64,000 nucleotides of DNA from Spirulina sp. (GTDB taxonomy: Bacteria > Cyanobacteriota > Cyanobacteriia > Phormidesmidales > Phormidesmidaceae): contig JBIPSI010000021.1 in NCBI GenBank assembly GCA_044070495.1, positions 1-64,000 on the forward strand. The letters are read 5' to 3'. Both the position numbers and the translations under genes were made by a program. Of this stretch, positions 266 to 59,747 are shown one piece after another. Numbering within the stretch: the first letter of the stretch is position 1; every line of letters starts with the position of its first letter. The notes below the pieces were generated by a model, which saw only the letters and a program-made list of their open reading frames with translations, did no database searches and was not told where the DNA came from.

Positions 266-2830
266 TTACACATCATCCAATGGCACCAAATCACGGACTT
301 GGGCGGCGGAATCTAGGTTGAGGGCTTGTTGGGCGAGTTCCTGGCAGTGGGGGTAGCTGAGGGTTCGCACCTGGGCCTTCACCGAGGGGATGACCGGGAT
401 GCTGACGCTGAGTTCTTTGACTCCTAGGCCGACGAGGAGGGGCACCGCCTGGGGATCCCCGGCCACGCCGCCGCAGACGCCGACCCATTTGCCATGTTTG
501 TCGGCTCCGCGCACGGTGAGGTCAATCATCCGCAGCACGCTGGGGTCGAGGGCATCGACGAAGGGGGCCAATTTGGGGTGGCCGCGATCCATGGCCAGGG
601 TGTATTGGGTCAGGTCGTTGGTGCCGATGGAGAAGAAATCCACCTGTTCGGCGAAGCGTTCGGCCATCACCGCCGCCGAGGGCACCTCGATCATGATGCC
701 AATTTCGATGGGGGGCACGCCCAGCTTTTGGCGCTCCTCTTCCATCACTGCCTTGGCCATGTGGAGTTCTTCTAGACGGGCAATCATCGGGAACATCACC
801 CGTGCCTTACCTGCCGTAGAAGCTTTGAGGATGGCGCGAAACTGAGTTCGCAGCAGTTCGGGACGGTCGAACCCCAGGCGAATGCCCCGTTCCCCTAGGA
901 AGGGATTTTCCTCGTGGGCCATGGGCAGATAGGGTAGGGGTTTGTCGCCCCCCACATCCAAGGTGCGGATGATCATGGGCTTATCTGGCCCCAGGGTTTT
1001 GAGAATGCTGGCGTAGATCACCTCCTGCTCGTCTTCGCTGGGGGCGGAACTGGCCTCCATAAAGACAAATTCCGTCCGCAGTAACCCGACCCCTTCGGTG
1101 CCGACCTTGAGGGCGGCTTCGGCATCCTCTAACCCGCCGATGTTGGCCACCACTTCGATGTGCCGTCCATCCTGAGTGTGGGCCAGGTCAAAGGCGTGGC
1201 GTAGGTCTTCCTCCTGCTTGGCCTTTTGGCGGGCGATCCGGGTTTGGATGGCCTCGATTTCAGTGGCGGTGGCATTGAGGCGCAGCTTGCCCCTGGTGCC
1301 GTCCAAAATCACCGGGGTGCCGTCGGGCAGATCCAGGGTGCGGGCCTCGATGCCAGCAATGGCAGGGATACCCATGGAACGGGCCAAAATCGCCACGTGG
1401 GAGGTGGCCCCTCCGGCGACGGTGCAGAACCCTTTGACGCGGCTGGGGTCGATGGTGGCCATGTCGGAGGGGGTGAGGTCTTCCGCCAGCAGGATGGTGT
1501 TTTCGGGATAGACCTGGGCTTCTTCTTGGACGCCTAGCAGAATGCGGAGAACCCGGTCGCCCACGTCCCGCAAATCATTGGCCCGTTCCGCCAGCAGTTC
1601 GTTTTTAAGCTGGGCGAGCTGGTTAGCCTGGGTGGTGTAGGTTTGCTGCCAAGCAAAGGCGGCACTTTTGCCCTTGTCGATGGCGCTGGTGGCGATGTCC
1701 GCCAGTTCCGGGTCGTCCAGCAATTCCTGGTGGGCGGAGAAAATCGCCGCCTTGCCGGGATCGCCCTGGCCATGCACCTTAGCCCGTAGGCTTTCGATTT
1801 CTAGCTCCGCCTGGGCCATGGCCTTCTCCAGCTTGCGGCGTTCGGCGTTGGGGCTGTCTCCGGTTTCGGGCACGTCCAATTCCTGGCGACGGGCGCGGAG
1901 GGTATTGCCCACCGCCAAGCCTGAGGAAGCCGCTACCCCCAAAATAATGTTCGGGTCATCGCTCTTGGGCCGGGGTGCCGGGGCAGACACTTCGGACTGG
2001 GCAATGCTGGCGGGGGCCGACATAATCGGCGTGGCTCCCTCTTCCCCCAGCCCGGTGCGGACGGCTTCCTCCAGTTCGGCAATGGCTTCCTCGGCATCGG
2101 CCCCAGATGCCTCTAGGGTCACGGTGTCTCCCCGCGCAATCTCCATCCCCATCAACCCCACCACGCTGCGAACATTGGCGCTGTCGCTGCCCCGGTGAAT
2201 GCGGATGGTGGACTGATACTTCTTCGCCAACTGGGCCAACACCGCCGAGGGCCGCGCATGGAGTCCCGATGGATTGGGAATGATGATGCCCTTCGACCGA
2301 ATCGTTATCCCAGCGGACTCATCGGCGGCAGCGGCGACTTCCGCCAAAACCAGGGTCAATACCGTATCCCTAGCGGCATTGGCGAACCCCACATTGGGCC
2401 GAAATTCCGCCACCCGCTCCCCATTCGTCACCACAATTTGGGTCAGTAGACTACGGGCCTTCTGGGCTACAAAGTCGGCATCAAACTCGATTAGGATGTC
2501 CCCAGTTTTCACCTGGTCGCCCACCTTCACCTTGGGAGTAAAGCCCTCCCCCTTCAGCGCCACCGTATCCAGGCCAATGTGCATCAAAATCTCGATGCCC
2601 TCGGCGGTTTTCACCGTGGCGGCATGGTTGGCGCTGTGGATTTGCACAATTTCCCCATCGCAGGGGGCCAACAGCGCCTGACTGGTGGGGTCGATGGAAA
2701 TGCCGTCGCCCACCATTTTTTGGGCAAAAACGGGGTCGGGCACGGTATCGATGGGCACCAACTGCCCAGACAGGGGAGCCACCAAAACCAGGGTTTTCGT
2801 TTTGGCAGGAGGGGCTTGCACAGTGGTCAT
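266..2830 (-). CDS. ptsP: Multiphosphoryl transfer protein, EIIA(Glc family)-HPr-Enzyme I fusion of the PTS
   Basis: EIIA DPVFAQKMVGDG..ILMHIGLDTV; HPr GLHARP; EI GGATSHVAILARS, RTLDVGGDK, EENPFLGERGIR, FSIGTNDLTQY. Start set at ATG 2830 because the longer ORF start runs into the repeat. Confidence 0.95.
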   Translation of the reverse strand: MTTVQAPPAKTKTLVLVAPLSGQLVPIDTVPDPVFAQKMVGDGISIDPTSQALLAPCDGEIVQIHSANHAATVKTAEGIEILMHIGLDTVALKGEGFTPKVKVGDQVKTGDILIEFDADFVAQKARSLLTQIVVTNGERVAEFRPNVGFANAARDTVLTLVLAEVAAAADESAGITIRSKGIIIPNPSGLHARPSAVLAQLAKKYQSTIRIHRGSDSANVRSVVGLMGMEIARGDTVTLEASGADAEEAIAELEEAVRTGLGEEGATPIMSAPASIAQSEVSAPAPRPKSDDPNIILGVAASSGLAVGNTLRARRQELDVPETGDSPNAERRKLEKAMAQAELEIESLRAKVHGQGDPGKAAIFSAHQELLDDPELADIATSAIDKGKSAAFAWQQTYTTQANQLAQLKNELLAERANDLRDVGDRVLRILLGVQEEAQVYPENTILLAEDLTPSDMATIDPSRVKGFCTVAGGATSHVAILARSMGIPAIAGIEARTLDLPDGTPVILDGTRGKLRLNATATEIEAIQTRIARQKAKQEEDLRHAFDLAHTQDGRHIEVVANIGGLEDAEAALKVGTEGVGLLRTEFVFMEASSAPSEDEQEVIYASILKTLGPDKPMIIRTLDVGGDKPLPYLPMAHEENPFLGERGIRLGFDRPELLRTQFRAILKASTAGKARVMFPMIARLEELHMAKAVMEEERQKLGVPPIEIGIMIEVPSAAVMAERFAEQVDFFSIGTNDLTQYTLAMDRGHPKLAPFVDALDPSVLRMIDLTVRGADKHGKWVGVCGGVAGDPQAVPLLVGLGVKELSVSIPVIPSVKAQVRTLSYPHCQELAQQALNLDSAAQVRDLVPLDDV

Positions 2831-2861
2831 AGCGGGTTTGAGTAGGGAGTTTCGGTGGATG

Positions 2862-3156
2862 GCCCTCACCCCCAGCCCCTCTCCCCGTGGGAGAGGGGGG
2901 CCGGAAGGTTGTTCAAAATTCGTCTCCCCAATAGCGACCGCTCATACACATCCTGTTTTCATGCCATAAGTCCTTGGAGATCCCCCTCAATCCCCCTTGA
3001 AAAGGGGGACTTTGATTCCGGTTCCCCCCTTACTCAAGGAGGACTTTGATTCCGGTTCCCCCCTTTTTAAGGGGGGCTAGGGGGGATCCACACAAAGAAC
3101 CAGTCCGCATAGAGACTTATGTATAAGCAGTAGCCCTAAGGGAGAAGGCGTTAGGG
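2862..3156. mobile_element. Non-autonomous MITE-like palindromic element (2935-3133) nested in a CCCTCACCCC..CTCTCCC/GGGAGA repeat
   Basis: Imperfect terminal inverted repeats CGACCGCTCATACAC (2935) and ATGTATAAGCAGTAG (3119-3133), 11/15 match; internal duplicated GGACTTTGATTCCGGTTCCCCCCTT; no coding capacity. Confidence 0.65.
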
Positions 3157-3342
3157 TACAGGCCAGTTCTGAATAGGGAGTTTAACTATCTAAAGTTATC
3201 CAGGTCTTAAAAATGTCGCCTTAGCAATCTAATGTTGCAATTGCCGGATGGTCGCCGCCTCTGCAACTCTCGCCCCGGTGTTTTAGAATCATCTAACCCG
3301 GACTCCCCCTTTGGCTCCCGACCTAGATTTTCATCGTTGCCC

Positions 3343-4407
3343 ATGGCCCCCTCCACCTCTTCCCTGCGCCCCACCGCCCCCGGCCCCTCCCCCTGGGACA
3401 AACTGGTGAACTGGGCCACCAGCGACACAACGCTTTACGTGGTCAAGCGCATTTTGCAGGCGTTGTTGACCTTGCTCCTAGCCTCGGCCCTAAGCTTTTT
3501 TGTGATTCAACTGGCACCGGGGAACTTTTTGGATCAGTACCGCCAAAGCCCTCAGTTTTCCGAGGAAACCCTAGCCCAGCTCGAAGCCCAGTTTGGCCTT
3601 AATCAACCCGTTTGGCGGCAATACCTCACCTGGCTCTACCAAGTCGTGTTCTTCGGCAACTTTGGCCTCAGCTTTGCCTACCAGCGCCCGGTGGTGGATA
3701 TTCTCTGGGAACGAGTGCCTAACACGCTGCTGCTGTCCTTTGCGTCATTTTTGGTGACCTGGGCCATCGCCATTCCCCTCGGCATTGTGGGGGCCGTCAA
3801 GCAAAACCAATGGCTAGACCGTGCCCTGCGGGTGCTGAGCTACATCGGCCAAGGGATGCCCACCATCATCACGGGCCTGCTGCTGCTATTTTTTGCCCAG
3901 CTCACCGCGCCCCTATTTCCCATCGGTGGACGCACCAGCATCATCCACGACGACCTCAACTGGTTTGGGCAAATCCTAGATGTGGGCTGGCACCTGATTC
4001 TGCCCACCATTGCCCTCAGCATCACCGGATTTGCGGGGCTGCAACGCATTACCCGTGGCCAAATGCTGGATGTGATGCGCCAAAACTACATCCAAACCGC
4101 CCGCGCCAAGGGGTTGCCGGAAGATCGGGTGATCTACGTCCACGCCCTTCGCAATGCCGTAAACCCCCTGATTACCCTGCTAGGATTCGAGTTCGCTAGT
4201 TTGCTAGGCGGCGCGTTTATTACCGAAAACTACTTCAACTGGCCCGGTTTGGGCAAGCTCATCCTAGAGGCCGTCACCGCCCAGGATCTCTACCTGGTGA
4301 TGGCCAGTCTGATGATGGGGGCCGTGATGCTGATCATCGGCAACCTCCTAGCCGACCTGGTGCTGAGCGTAGTGGATCCCCGCATTCGCTTGTCGGAGAT
4401 GAATTAA
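3343..4407 (+). CDS. Peptide/nickel ABC transporter permease (OppB/DppB family)
   Basis: YVVKRILQA N-terminus, GNFGLSF, EAA-type loop YIQTARAKGL..HALRNA, FNWPGLG, VDPRIR end; ATG 3343 is the likely start. Confidence 0.92.
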   Translation: MAPSTSSLRPTAPGPSPWDKLVNWATSDTTLYVVKRILQALLTLLLASALSFFVIQLAPGNFLDQYRQSPQFSEETLAQLEAQFGLNQPVWRQYLTWLYQVVFFGNFGLSFAYQRPVVDILWERVPNTLLLSFASFLVTWAIAIPLGIVGAVKQNQWLDRALRVLSYIGQGMPTIITGLLLLFFAQLTAPLFPIGGRTSIIHDDLNWFGQILDVGWHLILPTIALSITGFAGLQRITRGQMLDVMRQNYIQTARAKGLPEDRVIYVHALRNAVNPLITLLGFEFASLLGGAFITENYFNWPGLGKLILEAVTAQDLYLVMASLMMGAVMLIIGNLLADLVLSVVDPRIRLSEMN

Positions 4408-25098: not shown

Positions 25099-26934
25099 AT
25101 GAACCAAATGTGGGTGGAGACAAGTTGGCTGCTGCCGATCTATGGGCTGCTGGGGGTAGTGTTGGCTCTGCCTTGGTCAATGGGCTTTATCCGCCGCACG
25201 GGGCCAAGGCCAGCGGCCTACCTCAACATTGCCATGACGCTGTTGGCCTTTGTCCATGGCCTGTTGGTGTTCCAGGGCATTTGGAATGAGGGTTCCCAGG
25301 AATTGATTTTCTCCTGGTTCAAATTTGCCGACCTACATTTGGAACTGGCCTTTGATATCTCGGTGCTGAACCTAGGGGCACTGGAACTGATTACCTTCCT
25401 CAGTTTGCTGGCCCAGGTGTTTGGCCTGGGGTATTTGGAGAAAGACTGGGCCTTGGCCCGGTTCTATTCCCTGATGGGCTTCTTTGAAGCGGCCATGAGC
25501 GGCCTGGTGCTGAGTGGGTCGCTGTTTGTTTCCTACTCGCTGCTGGAGATGCTGACCCTGTCTACCTATCTGCTGGTGGGTTTTTGGTATGCCCAGCCCC
25601 TGGTGGTGACGGCTGCCCGCGATGCCTTTTTAACCAAGCGTATCGGCGATGTGCTGCTGCTGATGGGTGTCGTGGCCCTAGCCGCCATGGCGGGTAGCCT
25701 GAACTTTAACGACCTCTATGAGTGGGTGAAAACCGAGACTCTTTCGCCCCTGGTGGGCACGCTGCTGGGGCTGGCGCTGATTGCGGGGCCGATTGGCAAG
25801 TGCGCCCAGTTTCCACTACACCTATGGCTGGATGAGGCGATGGAAGGGCCCAACCCGGCCTCGATTCTGCGAAATTCCGTCGTCGTCACCTGCGGAGCCT
25901 ACGTGCTGATTCGCCTTCAGCCGATTGTGGTGCTGTCGCCTGTGACCTTGGGAGTGCTGATTGCCCTGGGCAGCATTACCGCTATTGGTGGCTCCCTGGT
26001 GGCCCTGGCCCAGATTGACCTGAAGCGGACGCTGTCCTACTCCACTAGCGCTTATTTGGGGCTGGTGTTTGTGGCGGTAGGGACGGAATGGCCCGGAGTG
26101 GCGATTACCCTGTTGCTTACCCATGCGGTGGCCAAGGCGCTGCTATTTATGGGCGTGGGCAGCATCATCACCACCACCACCAGCCAAAACCTCACGGAAA
26201 TGGGTGGGCTGTGGTCACGGATGCCTGCTACCACCTTGGCCTTTGTGATTGGATCCCTGGGCATGGTGGGTATCTTTCCCCTGGGCTGCTTCTGGGGTCT
26301 GCGCATGGGGGCGGATTTCCTCAGCCAGAGTTCGCCCCTGCTGGCCTTGGTGTTCCTGCTGGTCAATGGCCTGACGGCCTTGAACTTAACCCGCGTATTC
26401 CGCCTGGTGTTTTTGGGACAAGCCCAACCCAAAACCCGCCGTGCCCCAGAGGTGCCCTGGCCGATGGCGGTGCCGATGGTATCGCTATCTATCGTGACCC
26501 TTTTGGTACCCGTGATGATGGCCCGGATGTCGCTGTTGCCGCCTGTGGAGTATTTGAACCTGCCAGTGACATTGCTGCTGGTGGCCTTTGGGGTGGCGGG
26601 GGTCGCCCTTGGGGCGGTGATTCCCCTGTCTAAGTCGCTGTCACGGTCGCGCAACCGCCCGGTACGGATTTTGCAAGACCTGCTGGCCTACGATTTCTAT
26701 ACCGAACGGCTCTATGCCAACACCGTTGTCGCTGCCGTGGGTGGCCTGTCGCGCTTCAGCAATTGGTTTGACCGCTACGTGGTGGATGGCTTGGTGAATG
26801 CCGTGGGGCTGGCTTCTCTTTTGGGTGGAGAAAGCCTGAAATACAGCATTTCTGGCCAATCTCAACTGTATTTGTTCACCATCATGGCCGGGGTGGGCCT
26901 GATTGGCGTTTTCATGACCTGGAGCCTGTGGTAG
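25099..26934 (+). CDS. ndhF4: NDH-1 CO2-uptake subunit NdhF4
   Basis: RRTGPRPAAY, QFPLHLWLDEAMEGP; clustered with ndhD and cupB. Confidence 0.9.
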   Translation: MNQMWVETSWLLPIYGLLGVVLALPWSMGFIRRTGPRPAAYLNIAMTLLAFVHGLLVFQGIWNEGSQELIFSWFKFADLHLELAFDISVLNLGALELITFLSLLAQVFGLGYLEKDWALARFYSLMGFFEAAMSGLVLSGSLFVSYSLLEMLTLSTYLLVGFWYAQPLVVTAARDAFLTKRIGDVLLLMGVVALAAMAGSLNFNDLYEWVKTETLSPLVGTLLGLALIAGPIGKCAQFPLHLWLDEAMEGPNPASILRNSVVVTCGAYVLIRLQPIVVLSPVTLGVLIALGSITAIGGSLVALAQIDLKRTLSYSTSAYLGLVFVAVGTEWPGVAITLLLTHAVAKALLFMGVGSIITTTTSQNLTEMGGLWSRMPATTLAFVIGSLGMVGIFPLGCFWGLRMGADFLSQSSPLLALVFLLVNGLTALNLTRVFRLVFLGQAQPKTRRAPEVPWPMAVPMVSLSIVTLLVPVMMARMSLLPPVEYLNLPVTLLLVAFGVAGVALGAVIPLSKSLSRSRNRPVRILQDLLAYDFYTERLYANTVVAAVGGLSRFSNWFDRYVVDGLVNAVGLASLLGGESLKYSISGQSQLYLFTIMAGVGLIGVFMTWSLW

Positions 26935-26936
26935 CT

Positions 26937-28565
26937 ATGCTAAGCGCACTGATTCTGATTCCATTATTGGGGGCCTTAGCGGTTATCCTTTGGCCTGGGA
27001 AAATTACGGCCTTTATCGCCAAACTGGTCAGCGGCCTAACGATTGGGTTGACCCTAGTGGGGGTTGTGTTTTTGGCGACCCAGTTTGAAATCACCACACC
27101 GGGCTTTCAGTTTGAAGAACTGCTGCCCTGGGTGGAACCGCTGGGGCTGAGCTATCGCCTGGGGCTGGATGGCCTCTCCCTCCCTTTGCTGGCGGTGAAT
27201 AGCCTGCTGGGAATTGTCGCCATCTACATCAGTGACCCCCACCTGCACCGACCTCGGCTGTACTATGCGCTGATCTTGGTGATCAACAGTGCGGTGGCGG
27301 GGGCCTTCCTCTCGGCCAACCTGCTGCTGTTCTTTATCTTTTATGAATTAGAACTCATCCCCCTGTATCTGCTGATCGCCATCTGGGGCGGGGCACGGCG
27401 GGGCTATGCGGCAACGAAGTTCTTGATCTATACGGCCCTATCGGGGATTTTGATCCTGGGCGCTTTCCTGGGCCTAGTGTGGCTATCGGGCAACACCAGC
27501 TTCGACTACGACAGCGGTTTGGCGACTGCGTTACCCTTGGCCCAGCAAATCACCCTACTGGTGGCGCTGCTGATTGGCTTTGGCATCAAAGTCCCCCTCT
27601 TTCCCTTTCATACTTGGTTGCCCGATGCCCACGTGGAGGCTTCGACCCCGGTTTCGGTGCTGCTGGCGGGGGTGCTGCTGAAGTTGGGCACCTACGGCCT
27701 AGTGCGGTTTGGTCTGGGCCTCTTCCCCGATGCCTGGATGGCCCTGGCTCCGGTGATGGCCACCTGGGCGGTAATCAGCGTCCTCTACGGTTCCCTGGCG
27801 GCCATTGCCCAGACGGACATGAAGAAAATGGTGGCCTACAGTTCCATTGGTCACATGGGCTATGTGCTACTGGCGGCGGCGGCTTCCACGCCCCTCAGCA
27901 TTGTGGGCACGGTGTTCCAAATGGTGAGCCACGGGCTGATTTCGGGGCTGCTGTTTTTGCTGGTGGGGGTGGTCTACCACACCACGGGCACCCGCGATCT
28001 CACCGTGCTGCGGGGGCTGCTGAACCCCGAACGGGGCTTGCCCTTCGTCGGTTCCCTGATGATTTTGGGGGTGATGGCCAGCGCAGGGATTCCCGGCATG
28101 GTGGGCTTTATCTCGGAATTTCTTGTATTTCGGGGCAGTTTCCTGATTTTCCCGGTACAAACCTTGCTCTGCATGGTGGGATCGGGCCTTACAGCGGTTT
28201 ACTTTCTGCTGCTGGTGAATCGCGCCTTCTTTGGACGGCTGGCGGTGGCTCTCCCCAGCACGTCGCCCCAGTTGGATGTTGACCTACCTAGCGTCACCTG
28301 GCGCGACCGCCTCCCCGCCCTCGCCCTGGCCAGCCTGATCATCGCCTTTGGCCTGCAACCCAACTGGATGGCCCGCTGGAGCGAACACACCACCCTGGCT
28401 CTGCACGAACCCTACCAAGGCTTTGTTCAGGTCAGCACCCTACGGCGGACTCCCCTGAATGAATCCCTGGTGGCCGATACCCTAATGGCTGATATCCCAG
28501 GGGTGGATGCCCCGGTCAATACCCTAGGGATGGATGTTCCGGTGATTGTCCCGGTGCTTCCCTGA
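26937..28565 (+). CDS. ndhD4: NDH-1 CO2-uptake subunit NdhD4
   Basis: FYELELIP, FPFHTWLPDAHVEAS, DMKKMVAYSSIGHM, GLLNPERGLP. Confidence 0.9.
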   Translation: MLSALILIPLLGALAVILWPGKITAFIAKLVSGLTIGLTLVGVVFLATQFEITTPGFQFEELLPWVEPLGLSYRLGLDGLSLPLLAVNSLLGIVAIYISDPHLHRPRLYYALILVINSAVAGAFLSANLLLFFIFYELELIPLYLLIAIWGGARRGYAATKFLIYTALSGILILGAFLGLVWLSGNTSFDYDSGLATALPLAQQITLLVALLIGFGIKVPLFPFHTWLPDAHVEASTPVSVLLAGVLLKLGTYGLVRFGLGLFPDAWMALAPVMATWAVISVLYGSLAAIAQTDMKKMVAYSSIGHMGYVLLAAAASTPLSIVGTVFQMVSHGLISGLLFLLVGVVYHTTGTRDLTVLRGLLNPERGLPFVGSLMILGVMASAGIPGMVGFISEFLVFRGSFLIFPVQTLLCMVGSGLTAVYFLLLVNRAFFGRLAVALPSTSPQLDVDLPSVTWRDRLPALALASLIIAFGLQPNWMARWSEHTTLALHEPYQGFVQVSTLRRTPLNESLVADTLMADIPGVDAPVNTLGMDVPVIVPVLP

Positions 28566-28621
28566 TCGTCAATCCCCCCCATCGCCACCCTTGCCGATAG
28601 CCCTGTCAAGACCTTGCCGCC

Positions 28622-29755
28622 ATGACCAACACTCTCCCTAAACCCGCGTCGGTTCATCCCCTAGAGCCGTTTATCGACCGTCTGCTGTCGGCGGATGCCC
28701 TGCTGCCCGACTCGGATACCAACGTGCTGGAGGTGGTGGGCATTCTGAAAAGCTATGGGGTGGTGCTGGATGCCTACTCGGACAACCTGATCTACATTGC
28801 CGACCACCAGTTCTTGGTGCTGTTTCCCTTCTTCAAATACTTCAATGGCGAGGTGTCCGTTGGCAAACTGCTCAAGCACTGGTGGCACGACCGCATCAAC
28901 TTTGAGTACGCCGAATACTGCATGAAGGCCATGCTTTGGCACGGTGGCGGCAAAATGGACGAGTATCTGGATTCTGAAGAATTCCTAGCCCTCTGCCGCA
29001 GGGCTACCACCGCCAAAACCAAGGCCAATCCCCTCGTTCGCAGCATCAACGCCGTATTTCCAGACTTCCTCCCTGAGCAGGTGCGCCAACTCGCCTACTA
29101 CAGCGCCCTCGGCCAATTCTGGCGGGTGATGAGCGATCTCTTCATCGACCTATCCGACGCCTACGATGCCGGAACGGTGAAAACTATCCCCGAAGTGGTC
29201 GCCTTCATTAAAGCGGGTCTGGTTGCCGCCGCCAGCAACCCCATCACCTACAGCGTTGACATCAACGGCCAAACCTACGACCTCATGCCCAAATCCGCTG
29301 GGCTAACCTTTTTGATGGATGTGGCGGTGCCCTACGTGGAGGCCGTCTTTTTTCGGGGTGCGCCCTTCTTGGGGACGGTGTCCTACAATGCCCAGGCCAA
29401 CCAAATCCCCGCCGAGCAGAGCCGATTTCAGTACGGTGCCCTCTACGCCGACCCCATCCCCGTGGGCGGTGCCGGGATTCCCCCCACCCTGCTCATGCAG
29501 GACATGCGCCACTTCCTGCCGGATTATCTGACTGAGTTCTACCTGTCCAGCGGTCGCGGTCTGGACGATGTGCGGGTGAAGATTTGCCAGAGCTTCCAAA
29601 AATCGATGTTCTGCGTTACCAGCGCCTCGTTACAAGGGCTACTGCCCCATGCCGCAGACACCACCAACCCCCAAGAACAAGCCGCCAACCGCACCTTCCT
29701 AGCCGCCTGGATGGATCGTCTCATAACTTCCCGGTTGGATATTGTGCAACTTTAA
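28622..29755 (+). CDS. cupB: CO2 hydration protein CupB (ChpX)
   Basis: HDRINFEYAEYCMKAMLWHG, GAGIPPTLLMQDMRH; 377 aa fits CupB rather than the longer CupA. Confidence 0.9.
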   Translation: MTNTLPKPASVHPLEPFIDRLLSADALLPDSDTNVLEVVGILKSYGVVLDAYSDNLIYIADHQFLVLFPFFKYFNGEVSVGKLLKHWWHDRINFEYAEYCMKAMLWHGGGKMDEYLDSEEFLALCRRATTAKTKANPLVRSINAVFPDFLPEQVRQLAYYSALGQFWRVMSDLFIDLSDAYDAGTVKTIPEVVAFIKAGLVAAASNPITYSVDINGQTYDLMPKSAGLTFLMDVAVPYVEAVFFRGAPFLGTVSYNAQANQIPAEQSRFQYGALYADPIPVGGAGIPPTLLMQDMRHFLPDYLTEFYLSSGRGLDDVRVKICQSFQKSMFCVTSASLQGLLPHAADTTNPQEQAANRTFLAAWMDRLITSRLDIVQL

Positions 29756-29861: not shown

Positions 29862-30713
29862 CTACTCGCCTCCTAGGTTTGGTTCACTTTTCAGTGGCAG
29901 CACCCCGCCACCCCGCTGGCAAGGCTGCTGAAAGGCGTAGATATCCTCCAGCACCTTGACCCAGCCCTGGACAAGGGAGGCCAGAATTTGGGCTCCTTTG
30001 TCGGTGGTGGCCACGGTGGGATCGCCGAGGACACCGCTCTGGCTCAAATCCTGCGTGACCCAGGCGAAGGGGAGTGCCCCTTCCATGGTGAGCCAGGTAT
30101 GGGTGGGCAAATGCCGGGGAAATTCGGCCTGGGCCTTTTCCATCCGCACCTGATCAGGCAAAATCGACAGCATTAGGCTAGTTTCGGCATCTCCAGCGTG
30201 AATGCCTAGCTCTAGCTCCTTGGGAGTGAGCAGATCCCCTGCGGCGTTGGGCACTGCCCAGACAAACAGCGGAAACACCATCAGATCCGGGTGGGCCAGG
30301 TGCAGATCACGGGCGGCAATCTCCAGCACTTGGGGCTGACCACCGTGGGCATTGATCAGCACAAACTTGCGAAATCCCGCCCGATAGACGCTTTCGGCCA
30401 CTTCGGTAATTACCCGCAGCAGGGTTTCCGCCGAAAGGGTGATGGTGCCCGGAAAATGCCAATGTTCATTGGATTTGCCGTAGCACAGAGGAGGCAAAGC
30501 GTAGGCTGGAATGGCCGGGTCTAGCTGCCCTAGGGCACCACCGAGGACGGTGGTGGCAATGGCGCTATCCACCACCAGGGGCAGGTGGGGGCCATGCTGT
30601 TCAATGGCTCCAATGGGCTGCACGATGACCACCTGATCGCGCTGGGGCATAGTTTCGATCTCCGTCCAGGTGAGATAAGGGAAAAACCGATGGGGGGGAA
30701 TGGGGCCGTGCAT
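29862..30713 (-). CDS. Creatininase family protein
   Basis: GAIEQHGPHLP, SNEHWHFPGT, NAHGG, HAGDAETS. Confidence 0.9.
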   Translation of the reverse strand: MHGPIPPHRFFPYLTWTEIETMPQRDQVVIVQPIGAIEQHGPHLPLVVDSAIATTVLGGALGQLDPAIPAYALPPLCYGKSNEHWHFPGTITLSAETLLRVITEVAESVYRAGFRKFVLINAHGGQPQVLEIAARDLHLAHPDLMVFPLFVWAVPNAAGDLLTPKELELGIHAGDAETSLMLSILPDQVRMEKAQAEFPRHLPTHTWLTMEGALPFAWVTQDLSQSGVLGDPTVATTDKGAQILASLVQGWVKVLEDIYAFQQPCQRGGGVLPLKSEPNLGGE

Positions 30714-36442: not shown

Positions 36443-37276
36443 TTAAATCACGTCGGCAAAGGTGCGTTCCATGCGGCGGAAGTAGAGAATTCCGGTGAAG
36501 AGCAGGACTAACACCAGCAGCAGGGACAGCAAAAATCCAGGCCAAAAGAGTTGCACATCGCCGCCAATGATGGCCCAACGAAAGCCGTCGATCACCCCCA
36601 CCATGGGGTTGAGGGAGTACAGCATTCGCCAGCGGTCGGGCACGATGGCGCTACTGAAGCCCACGGGCGAAATATACAGACCAAACTGCACCAAAAACGG
36701 CACTACATAGCGAAAGTCGCGGTACTGCACATTGAGGGCCGCTAGCCACAGCCCCGCCCCCATGGCCGCCGCAAAGGCAATGGCGGTAAACAGCGGCAGG
36801 GTGAGGATACGCCAGGAGGGCACCGCGTTGTACCAGGCCATCAGCCCCAGCAGGATCACGCCGGAAATCAAGAAGTCCACAAAGCTAACAATCACGGCAC
36901 TGGTAGGCACCACCAATCGGGGAAAGTACACCTTAGAAATCAGGTTGGCGTTGGTGATCAGGCTGTTGCTGCATTCCGAGAGGGCATTGGCAAAAAACTG
37001 CCAGGGCAGCATGGCAGAAAACACCAGGATTGGGTAGGGGGCATCGCCTTCACTGGGCAGGTTAGCCAAACGGCCAAACACCACCGTAAACACCACCATG
37101 GTTAAAAAGGGTCGAATCAGCGCCCAAGCCACCCCCACCACGGTTTGCTTGTAGCGCACCAAAATATCTCGCCAGGCCAGGAAGTAAAACAACTCCCGGT
37201 AGCGCCACAGATCGCGAAAGTACTGGGCCTCGGTACGGCCAGCTTCAATCACCAGTTCAGGAATGGGTTCAGCCAT
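36443..37276 (-). CDS. ABC-2 polysaccharide export permease (Wzm/RfbA type)
   Basis: DLWRYRELFYFLAWRDILVRYKQT, LISKVYFPR, LNPMVGVIDGFRW, FADVI end. Confidence 0.9.
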   Translation of the reverse strand: MAEPIPELVIEAGRTEAQYFRDLWRYRELFYFLAWRDILVRYKQTVVGVAWALIRPFLTMVVFTVVFGRLANLPSEGDAPYPILVFSAMLPWQFFANALSECSNSLITNANLISKVYFPRLVVPTSAVIVSFVDFLISGVILLGLMAWYNAVPSWRILTLPLFTAIAFAAAMGAGLWLAALNVQYRDFRYVVPFLVQFGLYISPVGFSSAIVPDRWRMLYSLNPMVGVIDGFRWAIIGGDVQLFWPGFLLSLLLVLVLLFTGILYFRRMERTFADVI

Positions 37277-37514
37277 GGGGGCAACGTCGATGCCTACAGT
37301 GTCTAGACTACCCAGAAGCCGTCCCGATGTGCGCTTTATTCCCGCTGCACCTAACCCCGCCGCCCCCGCCCCAGTTCCAACCATTCACCGTAGGGGAGAG
37401 GTTCCCTCGCCCTGATCCACGGGCAGCCAGGTATCCATTATTTATTAGAACCTGTAGGGGATAGGTCTCCTGCCCCTTTGACCGCTCTGAGTTCTGGCCA
37501 GGTTTGTCCGTCAA

Positions 37515-39149
37515 TCAGGGGGTATTGATCAGGGGGTAGATCTGACTCAAGTTAAGTTCTCCCATGGCAATGGGTTCAGGGAAAGAGAACTGGTTGAGAA
37601 TTTTGGGGTGAACTTCGCCAAACTCGCCAATGGTTTGCCCATTCATCTGCACCAGGGCCGACCGTCCTGGAATGTAGTAGGGGCTGTGACCTTCAGTAAG
37701 ATCGTAGGTAACCCCCAAGGCCCGCAGCAGGGTTTGCAGGTAGGCCTTGGCCGTGGAAAAGGACGCCCTGGCATTGAGGCTGGCAAAGCCCCAGGACTGG
37801 GATTCTTCGCCCTGTCCATCGGCGGCGAGGCGGAGAATTTCCCCGGTTTCGTAGAGGTTGATGGGTTTGGGGGCATTGATGTTGCAGGATAGAACCTCCA
37901 GAAGCCCGACCTGGAGTGTGGTGCGGGTGGCGCTGTAGGCACGGCTTTTGGCGTTGCTGGTTTGTAAGTAGTGTTCAGAAAACAGGGCCAACAGGGTGGG
38001 ATCGGTGAGGACATGGCCCTTCACCTCCATTAGCCCCAAGCGCTGGGACACATCGCACACCCGAAACACAAACTGGCGTAGTCCATCGGCCTCGCCCAGG
38101 TGAAACTTCACCGACAGCGGTTCTGGCTGAAAGCTATCAATCCCCAGGGCTACCATCAAATCTCCAGCCAAATCTACCTGGCTGATCAGGTCGGTGCGGT
38201 AGGTGGGCACATAGACCTCGTTCGTGCCGCTGACCACCAGATCCATGCGCCCCAACACCTGGCCCAGCTTGGCCTTAGGAATGGCCGACCCCATGATTTC
38301 ATTCAAAAACCGCGCCGAAAAGGACACGGCACGCCGATCTAGGCTAGGGGTAACCTGCGATCCGGCGGGGGTAACCACGGTGACGGTCTGCACCTCGGCC
38401 CCAGTGTCTAAAAAATTATGGGCCAGAATATTAATGGTTTCCTGCACCGTGCGATCTAAAATGCCCGTGACATCGATAAACAGGTTGCGGGTGTCGGCGG
38501 AAATCTCCCCCACGCCAGCGGCGTTAATGATCGGCGGCAGCGAGAGCACCTGCCCCTGGGCATCGCGCAGCACGGGCACGGTGTCTCCCTCCGGCAGGGT
38601 AGAGCCATAGAGCTTACCAGCGGGGTGGTGGGCCAGCAGATTGACGGCGGTGAGGGGGGCCGTTTCCCCTAGGGGCACAAAGGTAACGTCGGTTTTGGCC
38701 TGGGCCGTGTAGGTGAGGGGGCCAACGATGCGATCCAGGTCGTAGACCCCAATGGCGATCTTTTTGCGTTGGCGACCAAAGGTTTGGGTCACCTTCTCCT
38801 GAAACTGAATCAACACCTCCAGTCCGCCATCCCGAAGATGGGCCTGCCGCACCACCAACGCCGCCAGGTGAGGCCGTAATCCTAAAACTGACGGATCCAC
38901 GGTGACCCGATAGCCCGAATCGGCTAGGGTTTCGGGCACAGTGCGGGGTTGCCCACCATAGATATTCATCGCCCGAATAAAGCCCTCGGCGGATAAGAGG
39001 TCGGGCCGTTCGGCGGTTACCTCCACCTCTAGGTTGTCCTCCCGCAGGGTGACTTCTAGGCCGTAGTCAAAGGCCTGTCGTTCAAGCTGGGCCAGGGGTG
39101 TTTGGGTGAGCTGCTGAAGGTAAGACAGGGGAAACGTTACCGTGGGCAT
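37515..39149 (-). CDS. Archaeal/eukaryotic-type phenylalanine--tRNA ligase beta subunit-like protein, orphan
   Basis: MPTV start, ERPDLLSAEG, QEK..GRQRKKIAIGVYDLD, VLSLPPIINA, LFIDVTG, VPTYRTDL, GEFGEVHP; 544 aa with no OB-fold or C-terminal anticodon-binding domain. Confidence 0.85.
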   Translation of the reverse strand: MPTVTFPLSYLQQLTQTPLAQLERQAFDYGLEVTLREDNLEVEVTAERPDLLSAEGFIRAMNIYGGQPRTVPETLADSGYRVTVDPSVLGLRPHLAALVVRQAHLRDGGLEVLIQFQEKVTQTFGRQRKKIAIGVYDLDRIVGPLTYTAQAKTDVTFVPLGETAPLTAVNLLAHHPAGKLYGSTLPEGDTVPVLRDAQGQVLSLPPIINAAGVGEISADTRNLFIDVTGILDRTVQETINILAHNFLDTGAEVQTVTVVTPAGSQVTPSLDRRAVSFSARFLNEIMGSAIPKAKLGQVLGRMDLVVSGTNEVYVPTYRTDLISQVDLAGDLMVALGIDSFQPEPLSVKFHLGEADGLRQFVFRVCDVSQRLGLMEVKGHVLTDPTLLALFSEHYLQTSNAKSRAYSATRTTLQVGLLEVLSCNINAPKPINLYETGEILRLAADGQGEESQSWGFASLNARASFSTAKAYLQTLLRALGVTYDLTEGHSPYYIPGRSALVQMNGQTIGEFGEVHPKILNQFSFPEPIAMGELNLSQIYPLINTP

Positions 39150-39352
39150 GGGCCAAGGAGAATAGACAAACTCAGGGGCGTCGCGCAACGCGAGGGGCTA
39201 TTGAAGCCGAATCAAGGCACGATCACAATGTTATGAACGCAGAATCGAAGCACAACCGAAGCACACTATATCCTATCTGGCCCTAGCCTCAGCCAAGGCC
39301 CTAGCCGCGCCGCCCCACACCATTCCCTGGGGGTGTGAGATAATGGCCTGCC

Positions 39353-40330
39353 ATGATGCCTAGATCCCCAGCCCAGCCCTCAAATCTGCTGATTAAGCTC
39401 AGCCGCCGCCTGTTCGACCAAGCGGAACAACAGTCTGCCTTTGTGGAAGCCCTCACCTCGCCCCCAACCTTTCCCCAGGCCATTCTGTGGACTCAGCCCC
39501 GCCCGTCGGAGGTGCCCTTTGACCTTGCCCCCGCCTTGCCCTGGCAGCCGCCCGCTGTGGATCGCCTCTGGCCCGACCAGCGCCCTGGACAGCATCCCCT
39601 ACACCAGGCGGGGGCCTACTACTGCCTAGACATGGCCTCGGTCTTTGCGGCGGCGGTGTTGAACGCGATCCCAACCTCGGTTGATCTGGTGCTGGATATG
39701 TGTGCGGCACCGGGGGGCAAAAGTTTGCTGGCCCGTCAGCAGCTCCGGCCCAAACAGCTTTGGTGCAATGAAGTCATCCGTAAGCGGGTCAGAATCCTCA
39801 TCGCCAACCTCAAACGCTGTGGGGCCATGGAGAGCCTAGTGTTCAACCTAGACCCGAAAATTTGGGCTGAACATCTACCCCAAGCCGCCTCGGTGGTGAT
39901 TGTGGATGCCCCCTGTAGTGGCCAATCCCTCCTCGCTAAGGGCGATCAAGCCTTGGGTTGTTTCCATCCGATCACCATCAAGAAAAACGCCAGTCGCCAA
40001 AAACGCATTCTGGGCCAAGCCGCCCAAACCGTGGCTGGGGGCGGCTACCTTGCCTACATGACCTGCACCTTCTCCCCGGAGGAAAACGAACAGGTGGCGG
40101 CGTGGTTGCTGAAGCACTTTCCCCAGTTTGAGGCGGTGCCCGTTCCCCTCCTCGCCGACCATCAGTCGCCCTTGGCCGAGTTTCCCTGCTATCGGCTGTG
40201 GCCCCAAATGGGCCTAGGGGCTGGAGGGTTTACGGTACTCTTCCGCAACCGAGATCTCCACCACTACCCCGCCACGCTCCCCGATGCCCTCGCCACCTAC
40301 ACCCTGCACCTTTATGCAGACCAGGAGTGA
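39353..40330 (+). CDS. RsmB/RsmF/NOP2-family RNA m5C methyltransferase
   Basis: LDMCAAPGGKS, VDAPCSG, YMTCTFSPEENE. Confidence 0.9.
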   Translation: MMPRSPAQPSNLLIKLSRRLFDQAEQQSAFVEALTSPPTFPQAILWTQPRPSEVPFDLAPALPWQPPAVDRLWPDQRPGQHPLHQAGAYYCLDMASVFAAAVLNAIPTSVDLVLDMCAAPGGKSLLARQQLRPKQLWCNEVIRKRVRILIANLKRCGAMESLVFNLDPKIWAEHLPQAASVVIVDAPCSGQSLLAKGDQALGCFHPITIKKNASRQKRILGQAAQTVAGGGYLAYMTCTFSPEENEQVAAWLLKHFPQFEAVPVPLLADHQSPLAEFPCYRLWPQMGLGAGGFTVLFRNRDLHHYPATLPDALATYTLHLYADQE

Positions 40331-41902: not shown

Positions 41903-43612
41903 CTAAAACAGGAAATACCGCTGGGCCATGGGCAGCACGTCGGCGGGTTCGCAGGTCAGCAGTTGACCGTCGGCGCGGACTTCGTAGGTTTCGGGGTTCA
42001 CCTCCATGTGGGGTTGGTAGGTGTTGAGCTTCATGTCGGCCTTGCTGAGGTTGCGGCAGTTGACCACCGCAGGGGCGGCTTTGGTGAGGCCAATTTGGGC
42101 AGGGATTCCCAATTCCAAGGCCGCTTTAGACACAAAGGTCAACGACGTAGCGGCTACCGCACCGCCAAAGCTGCCGAACATAGGCCGCATGTGGACGGGC
42201 TGCGGGGTGGGGATGCTGGCGTTGGGGTCGCCCATTTGCGCCCAGGCAATCGCGCCGCCTTTGATGACGATTTCGGGTTTGACGCCGAAAAAAGCGGGTT
42301 TCCACAGGCAAATATCCGCCAGCTTACCCGCTTCGATGGAACCCACATGGTCGGCAATGCCGTGGGTGATGGCGGGGTTGATGGTGTATTTGGCCACGTA
42401 GCGCTTGGCTCGGTGGTTGTCGTTGCGGTCAGAATCTTCCGCCAGTGGCCCCCGCTGCACCTTCATTTTGTGGGCGGTCTGCCAGGTGCGGATGATCACC
42501 TCACCCACCCGCCCCATGGCCTGGGAGTCGGAGGCAATCATACTAAAGGCCCCCAGGTCATGGAGGATGTCTTCTGCGGCGATGGTTTCGCGACGAATGC
42601 GGGACTCGGCAAAGGCAATGTCTTCGGGAATGCTGGGGCTGAGGTGGTGGCAGACCATCAGCATATCCAGGTGTTCGTCCAGGGTGTTGCGGGTGTAGGG
42701 GCGGGTGGGGTTGGTGGAGGAGGGCAGCACGTTGGCTTCGCCACAGACCTTGATAATGTCGGGCGCGTGGCCACCCCCAGCCCCCTCGGTGTGGTAGGTG
42801 TGAATCACCCGATTTTTGAAGGCGGCGATGGTGTCCTCCACAAAGCCCGCTTCGTTGAGGGTGTCGGTGTGGATGGCGACCTGGATATCGTACTCATCGG
42901 CGACGGCCAAGCAGGTGTCGATGGTGGCGGGGGTCGTGCCCCAGTCCTCATGGAGCTTGAGGCCCATGGCCCCAGCCTTCACCTGCTCCACCAGAGCCTC
43001 CGGTAGGGCACTGTTGCCCTTGCCCATAAAGCCCAGGTTCATGGGGAAGGCTTCCGCCGCTTGCAGCATCCGCCACATATTCCAGGCCCCAGGGGTGCAG
43101 GTGGTGGCATTCGTCCCCGTGGCTGGCCCAGTGCCGCCGCCGATCATGGTGGTGACGCCGGAGGCAATGGCGGTTTCGATCTGCTGAGGGCAAATGAAGT
43201 GGATGTGGGTGTCGATGCCGCCAGCGGTGACGATCATGCCCTCGCCTGCGACGACCTCGGTACCAGGGCCAAGGATGATATCGACGTTGTCTTGGATGTA
43301 GGGGTTCCCCGCCTTACCAATTTTGTGAATTTTGCCGTCTTTAATGCCAATGTCGGCCTTAACGATGCCCCACCAGTCCAAAATCAGCGCATTGGTAATC
43401 ACCATGTCCACGGCCCCGGCCTCGCGCCCAATGGGAGACTGGCCCATGCCATCGCGGATCACCTTGCCACCGCCAAATTTCACCTCGTCCCCGTAGGTCG
43501 TGAAATCCTGCTCTACCTCAATGATCAGTTCTGTATCGGCTAAGCGGATGCGGTCGCCCACTGTAGGGCCAAAGGTTTCCGCATAGGCGCGGCGATCCAT
43601 GCGATAGCTCAT
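41903..43612 (-). CDS. ureC: Urease alpha subunit
   Basis: [53 protein letters not shown]. Confidence 0.98.
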
Positions 43613-43827
43613 GGGGACTCCTGTTGAAGATGAGGCAGCCGGTTGAAGATGGGGCAGCCTAAACCATTGCACAACCCAGGCCGCCAGACTCTAGAATGCG
43701 GGATTTTCCGCCGTTGGTCAATCGAGTCTAGGGCTGTAGCGGCCTAAAGCTAACCCATAGTAACGCTTAGCTTTGATTAAGGGTTTAAGGAGTATGGTTA
43801 TTGAAGATGCACCCCTTGGCACTGCCC

Positions 43828-59368: not shown

Positions 59369-59747
59369 AGGAAGGAGTTGGCGAGGTGGTTGCGGGTTGG
59401 CTACGGCTGGCCTGAGGAAAGTCCGGGCTCCCGAAAGACCAGACTTGCTGGGTAACGCCCAGTGCGGGTGACCGTGAGGAGAGTGCCACAGAAACATACC
59501 GCCGATGGCCTTGGGGTGTCTCCAGGCACAGGTAAGGGTGCAAGGGTGCGGTAAGAGCGCACCAGCAGCATCGAGAGGTGCTGGCTCGGTAAACCCCGGT
59601 TGGGAGCAAGGTCGAAGGGGCAAGGGTTGGTCTTTTTCCTGTCCCGTCTTTGCGTACCGCATGAGGCGGCTGGTAACAGTCGTCCCAGATAGATAACCGC
59701 CCCCCGGCAACGGGGAACAGAACCCGGCTTATGTCCGACTCCTTCCC
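59369..59747 (+). ncRNA. rnpB: RNase P RNA (type A)
   Basis: GAGGAAAGTCCGGGC, AGTGCCACAGAAA, GGTAAACCCC, ACAGAACCCGGCTTA; P1 GGAAGGAGTTGG pairs with CCGACTCCTTCC. Confidence 0.97.

Follow-up and report, generated by a model that had tools for sequence, protein, structure and literature searches.

What is a synthetase subunit gene of the archaeal type doing in a cyanobacterium, with no partner gene beside it? The gene in question encodes the beta subunit of a phenylalanyl-tRNA synthetase (PheRS) of the archaeal/eukaryotic type and lies on the minus strand at 37515..39149 of a stretch of Spirulina sp. DNA (contig JBIPSI010000021.1, positions 1 to 64,000); this whole stretch of 64,000 nucleotides is referred to below as the window. 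A reading made from the sequence alone had presented the gene as an orphan repurposed for the editing of mischarged tRNA in trans, and had named half of a second, split PheRS as its alternative. That alternative is what the relatives show, in that they carry an alpha gene. We put the probability at about three in four that the window gene encodes the beta subunit of a second PheRS, of the archaeal/eukaryotic type and acquired horizontally. The observation behind the orphan headline is sound and the headline over-reaches: the subunit is an ordinary one, and it is the second synthetase that is unusual.

The assembly of the genome that includes the window (G000) totals 5.31 Mb over 74 contigs, at 97% completeness and 1.2% contamination. 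Working labels for genomes (G), contigs (C) and loci (L) are given where these have to be told apart. Names found in the sources for the group of cyanobacteria with the archaeal-type gene are Nodosilinea, Leptolyngbya, Phormidium tenue and similar ones.

An archaeal-type beta subunit beside a bacterial PheRS

The longest frame of the beta gene (37515..39188, minus strand) begins with a TTG codon and encodes 557 amino acids. An ATG lies 13 codons downstream of it, at 39149, from which the frame encodes 544 amino acids without an internal stop or frameshift. The N-terminus MPTVTFPLSYL is common to the beta orthologues of four relatives (G460, G005, G019 and G443), and the 544-residue form is therefore the likely protein. 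Its features are the following, with amino acid positions counted from that ATG.

37515..39149, minus strand: coding sequence of the archaeal/eukaryotic-type PheRS beta subunit, 544 amino acids plus stop, start ATG at 39149
38952..39044, minus strand: B1 domain match, amino acids 36-66 (Pfam PF18262, 23.5 bits, under the gathering score of 26.8; the region lies inside the full-length TIGR00471 match)
38436..38801, minus strand: core of the B3/B4 editing domain, amino acids 117-238 (Pfam PF03483, 26.2 bits, under the gathering score of 29.3; aligned to 2cxi_A)
38142..38324, minus strand: B5 domain, amino acids 276-336 (Pfam PF03484, 40.4 bits)
38160..38198, minus strand: motif RTDLISQVDLAGD, amino acids 318-330, with G329 inside, where archaeal-type beta subunits elsewhere have Glu
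37548..38078, minus strand: catalytic-like module B6/B7 (CLM), amino acids 358-534 (Pfam PF17759, 102.9 bits), which pairs with alpha in known PheRS

The NCBIfam model TIGR00471 (pheT_arch; cut-off 282.65 bits) matches the protein with 345.6 bits and E = 4.7e-103, covering model positions 1-549 of 551, and a whole-genome search with this model recovers the window gene, likewise above the cut-off. The bacterial model TIGR00472 (pheT_bact) gave 114.5 bits, far under its cut-off of 402.65, in a match limited to positions 400-692 of 798; identity as a bacterial-type beta subunit was ruled out on this score. The Pfam order is B1, B3/B4, B5 and CLM with no other Pfam domains, and neither B2 (OB-fold) nor B8 (anticodon-binding) of the bacterial form is present. 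Among solved structures, the human PheRS beta subunit ranks first (3l4g_B, residues 41-535 of the query, E = 4.3e-47) and the N-terminal/editing fragment of the Pyrococcus horikoshii subunit second (2cxi_A, E = 4.4e-44). By score, architecture and editing residues, the sequence places the window gene in the archaeal/eukaryotic PheRS beta family. Thus the 544-residue protein of short archaeal/eukaryotic architecture that had been described from the sequence alone holds up, both in its score above the TIGR00471 cut-off and in the order of its four domains. Residues 82-232, in the B3/B4 region, have a further match in human LRRC47 (PDB 6zxd_k, E = 4.5e-09), which has a PheRS-beta-like domain without being a synthetase.

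The window gene is not the sole pheT of its genome. A search for a canonical copy, proposed earlier as a check, found a second pheT of the bacterial type (C14:25723-28158, 759.5 bits) that aligns end to end with 2rhs_B and encodes 812 amino acids, as against 544 for the window beta. As the bacterial beta is full length, the archaeal-type PheRS does not make up for a defective native one. A single bacterial pheS lies on C11 (355.4 bits). Only one tRNA-Phe(GAA) gene, with U20 and A73, was found among the 36 tRNA genes detected in G000, so that both PheRS enzymes would share one tRNA-Phe.

The alpha partner in relatives and the constraint on beta

Archaeal-type alpha genes were called with NF003210 at a cut-off of 350 bits and encode a protein of about 485 amino acids. 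Two pheS genes exceed the cut-off in each of five relatives (four with assemblies of 2-20 contigs, G007 with about 40). The second gene has an open frame of about 490 codons, and its protein passes the archaeal alpha equivalog (cut-off 350 bits) with 409.4 bits, matching positions 4-485 of 496. Across the 52 other genomes of the genus, the archaeal-type beta is found in 51, the sole miss being 86% complete, and the archaeal-type alpha in 47. The congeners without alpha are G006 (86% complete), G438 (84%), G014 (78%), G459 (69%) and G452 (99%). When the count is limited to the 39 genomes of good quality, with G000 included, 37 have alpha and the exceptions are G452 and G000. All seven of the closest relatives examined carry it, at identities to the window beta of 91% (G460), 84% (G005 and G019), 81% (G443), 78% (G448 and G445) and 72% (G458). 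Both archaeal-type genes also occur in a genome from another cyanobacterial family (G030). Bacterial pheS and pheT are both retained as well in the relatives that carry the archaeal-type genes, and more than 50 species have the two enzymes side by side.

Two deeper lineages of cyanobacteria have alpha immediately upstream of beta, with both genes in the same orientation.

L051: alpha at 890-2335, beta at 2501-4105
L050: alpha at 2-1240, beta at 1442-3040

An alpha-type match was present in the flank of 38 of 77 beta loci, among them the majority of the DPANN archaeal loci and four spirochaete loci; the 2.5-kb flanks of the 12 Nodosilinea-type loci have none. Several other alpha and beta homologues sit on contigs of equal length, which may be a further sign of linkage. 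The simplest history is that a pheS-pheT pair was acquired once and that the two genes came apart later within the genus. In G018, which is assembled in two contigs, beta lies at C2:583160-584761 and alpha at C1:2772756-2774177, and the two are possibly on different replicons. A biosynthetic cluster beside alpha was considered and rejected, as the flanks of the G016 gene hold two-component sensors and response regulators; no gene cluster that would hint at the self-resistance of a producer was seen beside either gene, whether at alpha in G016 or at the beta loci.

The beta gene itself is under purifying selection that is even across all four domains. Pairwise ratios of nonsynonymous to synonymous substitution rates (dN/dS) were 0.095-0.123 in all 10 pairs, with 0.111 at a dS of 0.43 between G000 and its closest relative, G460. 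The share of columns that are at least 95% conserved is 40% in B1, 32% in B3/B4, 39% in B5 and 34% in CLM; the window beta departs at one of the 184 columns conserved to this degree, which is also the family median. Identity between G000 and G460 is 88% in CLM and 90% in B3/B4, so that divergence in the module is no larger. No relaxation of constraint on the G000 branch was seen in dN/dS or at conserved columns.

The editing site is intact. The B3/B4 motifs that had been picked out earlier were all located: Q117-E118-K119, G125-R126-x-R128, S203-L-P-P-I-I-N209 and F224-I-D226-V-T228-G229. An alignment to the Pyrococcus subunit had been suggested as a check of the editing residues, and in the 2cxi_A alignment the six pocket residues correspond one to one, with L168, L202, S211, N217, D234 and T236 of P. 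horikoshii facing L160, L194, S203, N209, D226 and T228 of the window beta. Among 119 cyanobacterial homologues, 109-119 retain each of the six. The editing role of Asn217 in Pyrococcus is confirmed in PMC3275996. The other five Pyrococcus positions (L168, L202, S211, D234 and T236) are reported to be editing-pocket residues (Sasaki et al. 2006).

The B5 domain holds the one departure that had been pointed out from the sequence, a Gly for Glu within RTDLISQVDLAGD, and it is real. The acidic motif R-x-D...D-x-x-E-D is not complete: R318, D320, D326 and D330 are kept and the Glu is replaced by G329. The residue at this position is Glu in 39 of 41 archaeal-type betas from outside the cyanobacteria (Asp in the other two); in all 119 cyanobacterial homologues it is Gly. 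On this alignment G329 reads as a trait of the clade and not as a defect of the window copy. It is one of five clade-wide changes at otherwise conserved columns (E329G, I333V, G370R, F433Y and F492Y); in the comparison with the 41 other archaeal-type betas, 54 conserved columns are identical and these five are changed. The acidic motif would be the site of a Mg ion shared with alpha, as annotated in databases; a literature search on this Mg site in B5 gave nothing useful.

From this distribution and conservation we propose the following. The archaeal-type enzyme would have entered a small group of filamentous cyanobacteria as a pheS-pheT pair, in an ancestor of that group, and would have been kept alongside the native bacterial PheRS ever since, while the alpha and beta genes drifted apart within the genus. 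By homology with the solved enzymes, beta and the alpha of about 485 amino acids would form an (alpha-beta)2 tetramer. Alpha would activate phenylalanine and charge tRNA-Phe, with its N-terminal domains standing in for the absent B8 as anticodon reader. The tetramer would be held together by B5 and the catalytic-like module of beta, and the B3/B4 pocket would hydrolyse mischarged Tyr-tRNA-Phe. PMC3275996 describes such a division for known PheRS, in which B5 and the catalytic-like module form a core with alpha and B3/B4 removes Tyr from tRNA-Phe. Enzymatic activity of the second PheRS is thus predicted by analogy.

A different partner for the window beta would be the resident bacterial alpha, whose gene is the sole pheS found in the G000 assembly, and the four-helix-bundle core described in PMC3275996 as common to both types of PheRS would offer such a hybrid a shared frame. 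We consider it highly improbable. As far as the same account goes, the archaeal-type beta lacks B8 and the bacterial alpha lacks the N-terminal domains that would substitute for it, so the hybrid would have no anticodon reader; moreover, the bacterial alpha has a full-length bacterial beta available, and the relatives retain a dedicated alpha of the archaeal type.

Since the coexistence of the two enzymes is stable across this many species, we argue that they are non-redundant. Possible reasons for keeping two PheRS are a differing sensitivity to phenylalanine analogues such as meta-tyrosine (m-Tyr), resistance to PheRS inhibitors, or use under specific conditions such as stress. The handling of m-Tyr or other phenylalanine analogues makes a testable idea, because human cytosolic PheRS binds m-Tyr about 10 times less well than bacterial PheRS (PMC3275996) and m-Tyr is toxic to cyanobacteria (as reported in PMC12525003, 2025).

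A missing alpha gene in one assembly

A difficulty for a second PheRS in this particular organism is that its alpha gene was not found. In the G000 assembly no archaeal-type pheS was recovered with the pheS family model or with NF003210, and searches with the alpha protein of one relative (E up to 10), as well as tblastn searches with those of three relatives (E up to 10), returned only the bacterial pheS. At the sites that hold alpha in relatives, G000 carries other genes in contig interiors, and no gap was seen at the syntenic positions. The dispersed repeat of about 100 bases that lies beside the G460 alpha (L043 3040-3160) has 111 matches in G000, including one at 2862-2928 of the window, and G000 contig ends show no excess of it (2 of the 111 copies, against about 0.9 expected). 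A second genome repeats the pattern: G452, 99% complete in 210 contigs, has an intact beta (C41:15981-17582) and no alpha at E up to 1e-60. Together with the loss of one conserved acidic residue of the B5 motif throughout the cyanobacterial clade, these results count against our preferred explanation.

The syntenic positions point towards a real loss or a move of the gene. In G005 and G019, alpha sits between orthologues of an aminotransferase gene (C9:83266 in G000) and a Uma2-family gene (C31:27289), both of which lie in contig interiors in G000 with other neighbours. In G443 and G445 it adjoins a creatininase gene that corresponds to 29862-30713 of the window, where the G000 neighbour is chpY. 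As the position of alpha differs between relatives and G000 is rearranged at each of them, synteny proves neither a gap nor a loss. In favour of an assembly or binning gap, the G460 alpha lies on a contig of 3.6 kb that, apart from the repeat, has no match above 80% in G000, its flanks being missing too; the smallest G000 contig is 3.1 kb. Two alpha dropouts among 39 genomes of 97-99% completeness are close to the expectation from chance, and the unrelaxed constraint on beta also speaks for a gap.

Sequencing runs of related material were also considered. Strains close to the window occur in four metagenome runs, at 27-36% of its sampled words. Contigs from these four runs cover the G460 alpha locus at about 88% identity, which equals the distance between G000 and G460 at beta (88.4%); record 24 of X4, for example, is 7114 nt long and covers 148-2110 of that locus. 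On the opposing side, the runs are metagenomes, and the alpha contigs in them need not belong to the window's organism. Among the sequencing runs listed, 36% is the largest share of the window's sampled words, and none of these runs is of RNA.

Taken together, we judge it about twice as likely that alpha went unassembled or unbinned in G000 as that it was lost. The orphan state of beta is real for the G000 assembly and unproven for the organism. An archaeal-type pheS partner had been named in advance as the finding that would undo the orphan interpretation; such a partner exists in the lineage, but none was found in the G000 assembly itself.

If alpha has in fact been lost in G000, and perhaps in G452, beta could persist there as a free-standing deacylase that acts in trans through B3/B4, selected for clearing the Tyr-tRNA-Phe or m-Tyr-tRNA-Phe made by the bacterial PheRS. 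The assembly without alpha, the three syntenic positions known from relatives at which none is found, and the repetition in the 99% complete G452 are all in keeping with this, as are an intact beta with its editing residues and a dN/dS of 0.11; a free-standing relative of B3/B4 described as editing tRNA, CtdA, provides a precedent. We nevertheless find this explanation unlikely. The beta family travels with alpha in the great majority of congeners and adjoins it in the basal lineages. B5 and the catalytic-like module would be dispensable for editing, yet their conservation equals that of B3/B4 and the G000 branch shows no relaxation, which argues against a free editing factor. The number of dropouts fits chance loss from assemblies, and an archaeal-type beta, as PMC3275996 describes it, has no anticodon-binding domain of its own. 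For these reasons the headline of trans editing by an orphan, as put forward in the sequence-only reading, is not supported: against it stand the presence of alpha in the congeners, the adjacency of the two genes in two deeper lineages and the equal constraint on all beta domains. Were it true all the same, the orphan beta would be a synthetase subunit caught in the course of becoming a free-standing editing factor.

Loss of alpha could also have been so recent that beta is an intact leftover without function, which would decay in time. The absence of alpha from the assembly and from the syntenic sites would be explained, and a very recent loss could escape a dN/dS computed pairwise over the whole distance between G000 and G460. 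That the frame is intact and free of frameshifts, and that the protein departs at no more conserved columns than the family median, makes such a relic quite improbable in our estimation. The second PheRS, with an alpha gene that this assembly has probably missed, remains our preferred explanation.

Origin, surroundings and known systems

Archaeal-type PheRS is rare in cyanobacteria. Among 400 other cyanobacterial genomes, drawn evenly from 152 genera, two other genera of the same family included, none yielded an archaeal-type beta at E up to 1e-40. A beta tree was constructed with IQ-TREE (LG+C20, quick search) from 66 rows, taken from 50 of the 77 loci and 17 proteins (P0001 included); L081 was dropped for an internal stop. 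In this tree, the cyanobacterial sequences and three metagenome proteins form one clade (support 100) on a stem of 0.81 changes per column, beside a Micrarchaeota clade (96). In the alpha tree (37 rows), the cyanobacterial clade stands on a very long stem (1.92), and its closest neighbours are two Woesearchaeota sequences. Both trees set the spirochaete sequences apart in a clade of their own, so the cyanobacterial acquisition was independent of the spirochaete one.

The two named trees, of beta and of alpha, were built without eukaryotic or named Asgard sequences, one representative of a Promethearchaeota cluster being placed in a separate, unnamed tree, so that neither named tree fixes the donor of the archaeal-type PheRS. 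In a protein-atlas look-up, archaeal and eukaryotic clusters scored equally. The alpha of relatives (L020 937-2388, L043 652-2106 and L051 890-2335) has the motifs YNPYTEPS and GNSG, like human cytosolic PheRS alpha; in place of the cyanobacterial alpha Asn408, 18 of 20 sampled archaeal alphas have Phe. About half of 293 aligned residues are identical between the cyanobacterial and human alpha, by a hand count of the alignment. The earlier suggestion of a horizontally acquired paralogue thus stands as regards an archaeal-type gene beside a canonical pheT, and the phylogeny places its clade on a long stem.

The surroundings of the beta gene were described correctly from the sequence: a wzm gene and a divergent RNA methyltransferase gene flank it, with no pheS nearby. 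The first is an ABC-2/Wzm-like permease (36443-37384, minus strand), and the second an RsmB/F-family methyltransferase of 325 amino acids (39353-40330, plus strand) that scores under the cut-offs of all nine NCBIfam models it matched. The Wzm-like gene and a Crp-like neighbour gene are shared with the closest relative, G460, only, and the RsmB/F-like gene lies beside beta in G000 only and in none of 23 relatives' loci examined. The neighbours were rejected as functional partners of beta, since across those 23 loci the neighbourhood is not conserved beyond G460. No RNA elements were found near the beta gene at Rfam gathering scores.

Several features elsewhere in the window were recorded in passing. 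At 25099-29755 on the plus strand, two genes for NDH-1 antiporter-like subunits are followed by a gene for a ChpXY CO2-hydration protein (627.5 bits), an arrangement suggestive of an NDH-1 cluster for CO2 uptake. On the same strand, 30854-30909 matches the glutamine riboswitch (Rfam RF01739, 58.7 bits), between creatininase-family and histidine kinase genes. An Rfam 5_ureB_sRNA match (128.6 bits) at 43171-43457 on the plus strand is antisense inside a urease alpha-subunit-like frame (41903-43672, minus strand), and it may merely mirror conserved urease coding sequence in the Rfam model. A class A bacterial RNase P RNA (253.6 bits) occupies 59374-59746 on the plus strand.

Public records already label both cyanobacterial genes as PheRS subunits. 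A search of full-text literature found no paper on a cyanobacterial archaeal-type PheRS pair; the supplements of PMC4787780, which tabulate duplicated synthetases, may list it. For annotation, the case serves as a caution that orphan calls from a single draft assembly need to be checked in relatives. Its wider meaning is that a whole cyanobacterial genus and a few related lineages keep both types of PheRS, the second of which needs two genes that are now unlinked.

Among known systems, the closest to the window beta is the beta subunit of archaeal and eukaryotic cytosolic PheRS (P. horikoshii in 2CXI, human FARSB in 3L4G), which is of the same length class and has the same domain order and editing residues. 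The window beta differs in that its host is a bacterium that also holds a bacterial PheRS, in its five changed columns and long stem, and in an alpha gene that is unlinked in the genus and was not found in the G000 assembly. CtdA, described as a stand-alone canavanyl-tRNA-Arg deacylase related to B3/B4 (PMC10018355, PMC12268091), has a B3/B4-type editing fold in common with the window beta, whereas the latter keeps four equally constrained domains and belongs to a family that accompanies alpha. A free trans-editing factor of the CtdA kind was accordingly rejected, given that the family co-occurs with alpha in 47 of 52 congeners and adjoins it in the basal lineages.

The archaeal-type PheRS of the Spirochaetaceae (Andam and Gogarten 2011, PMC3191353) was likewise acquired by a bacterial lineage with both subunits and serves there as a shared derived character, a precedent indicating that an archaeal-type PheRS can serve bacterial translation. 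In those bacteria the archaeal form replaced the bacterial PheRS, whereas in the cyanobacteria the two coexist. A parallel for such coexistence is the pair of threonyl-tRNA synthetases, T1 and T2, of Anabaena (Rubio et al. 2015, PMC4787780), which also gives a cell two synthetases for one amino acid and implies a division of labour. There, both enzymes are bacterial-type homodimers and one is induced by zinc limitation; the second cyanobacterial PheRS, in contrast, belongs to a type from another domain of life and takes two genes to encode.

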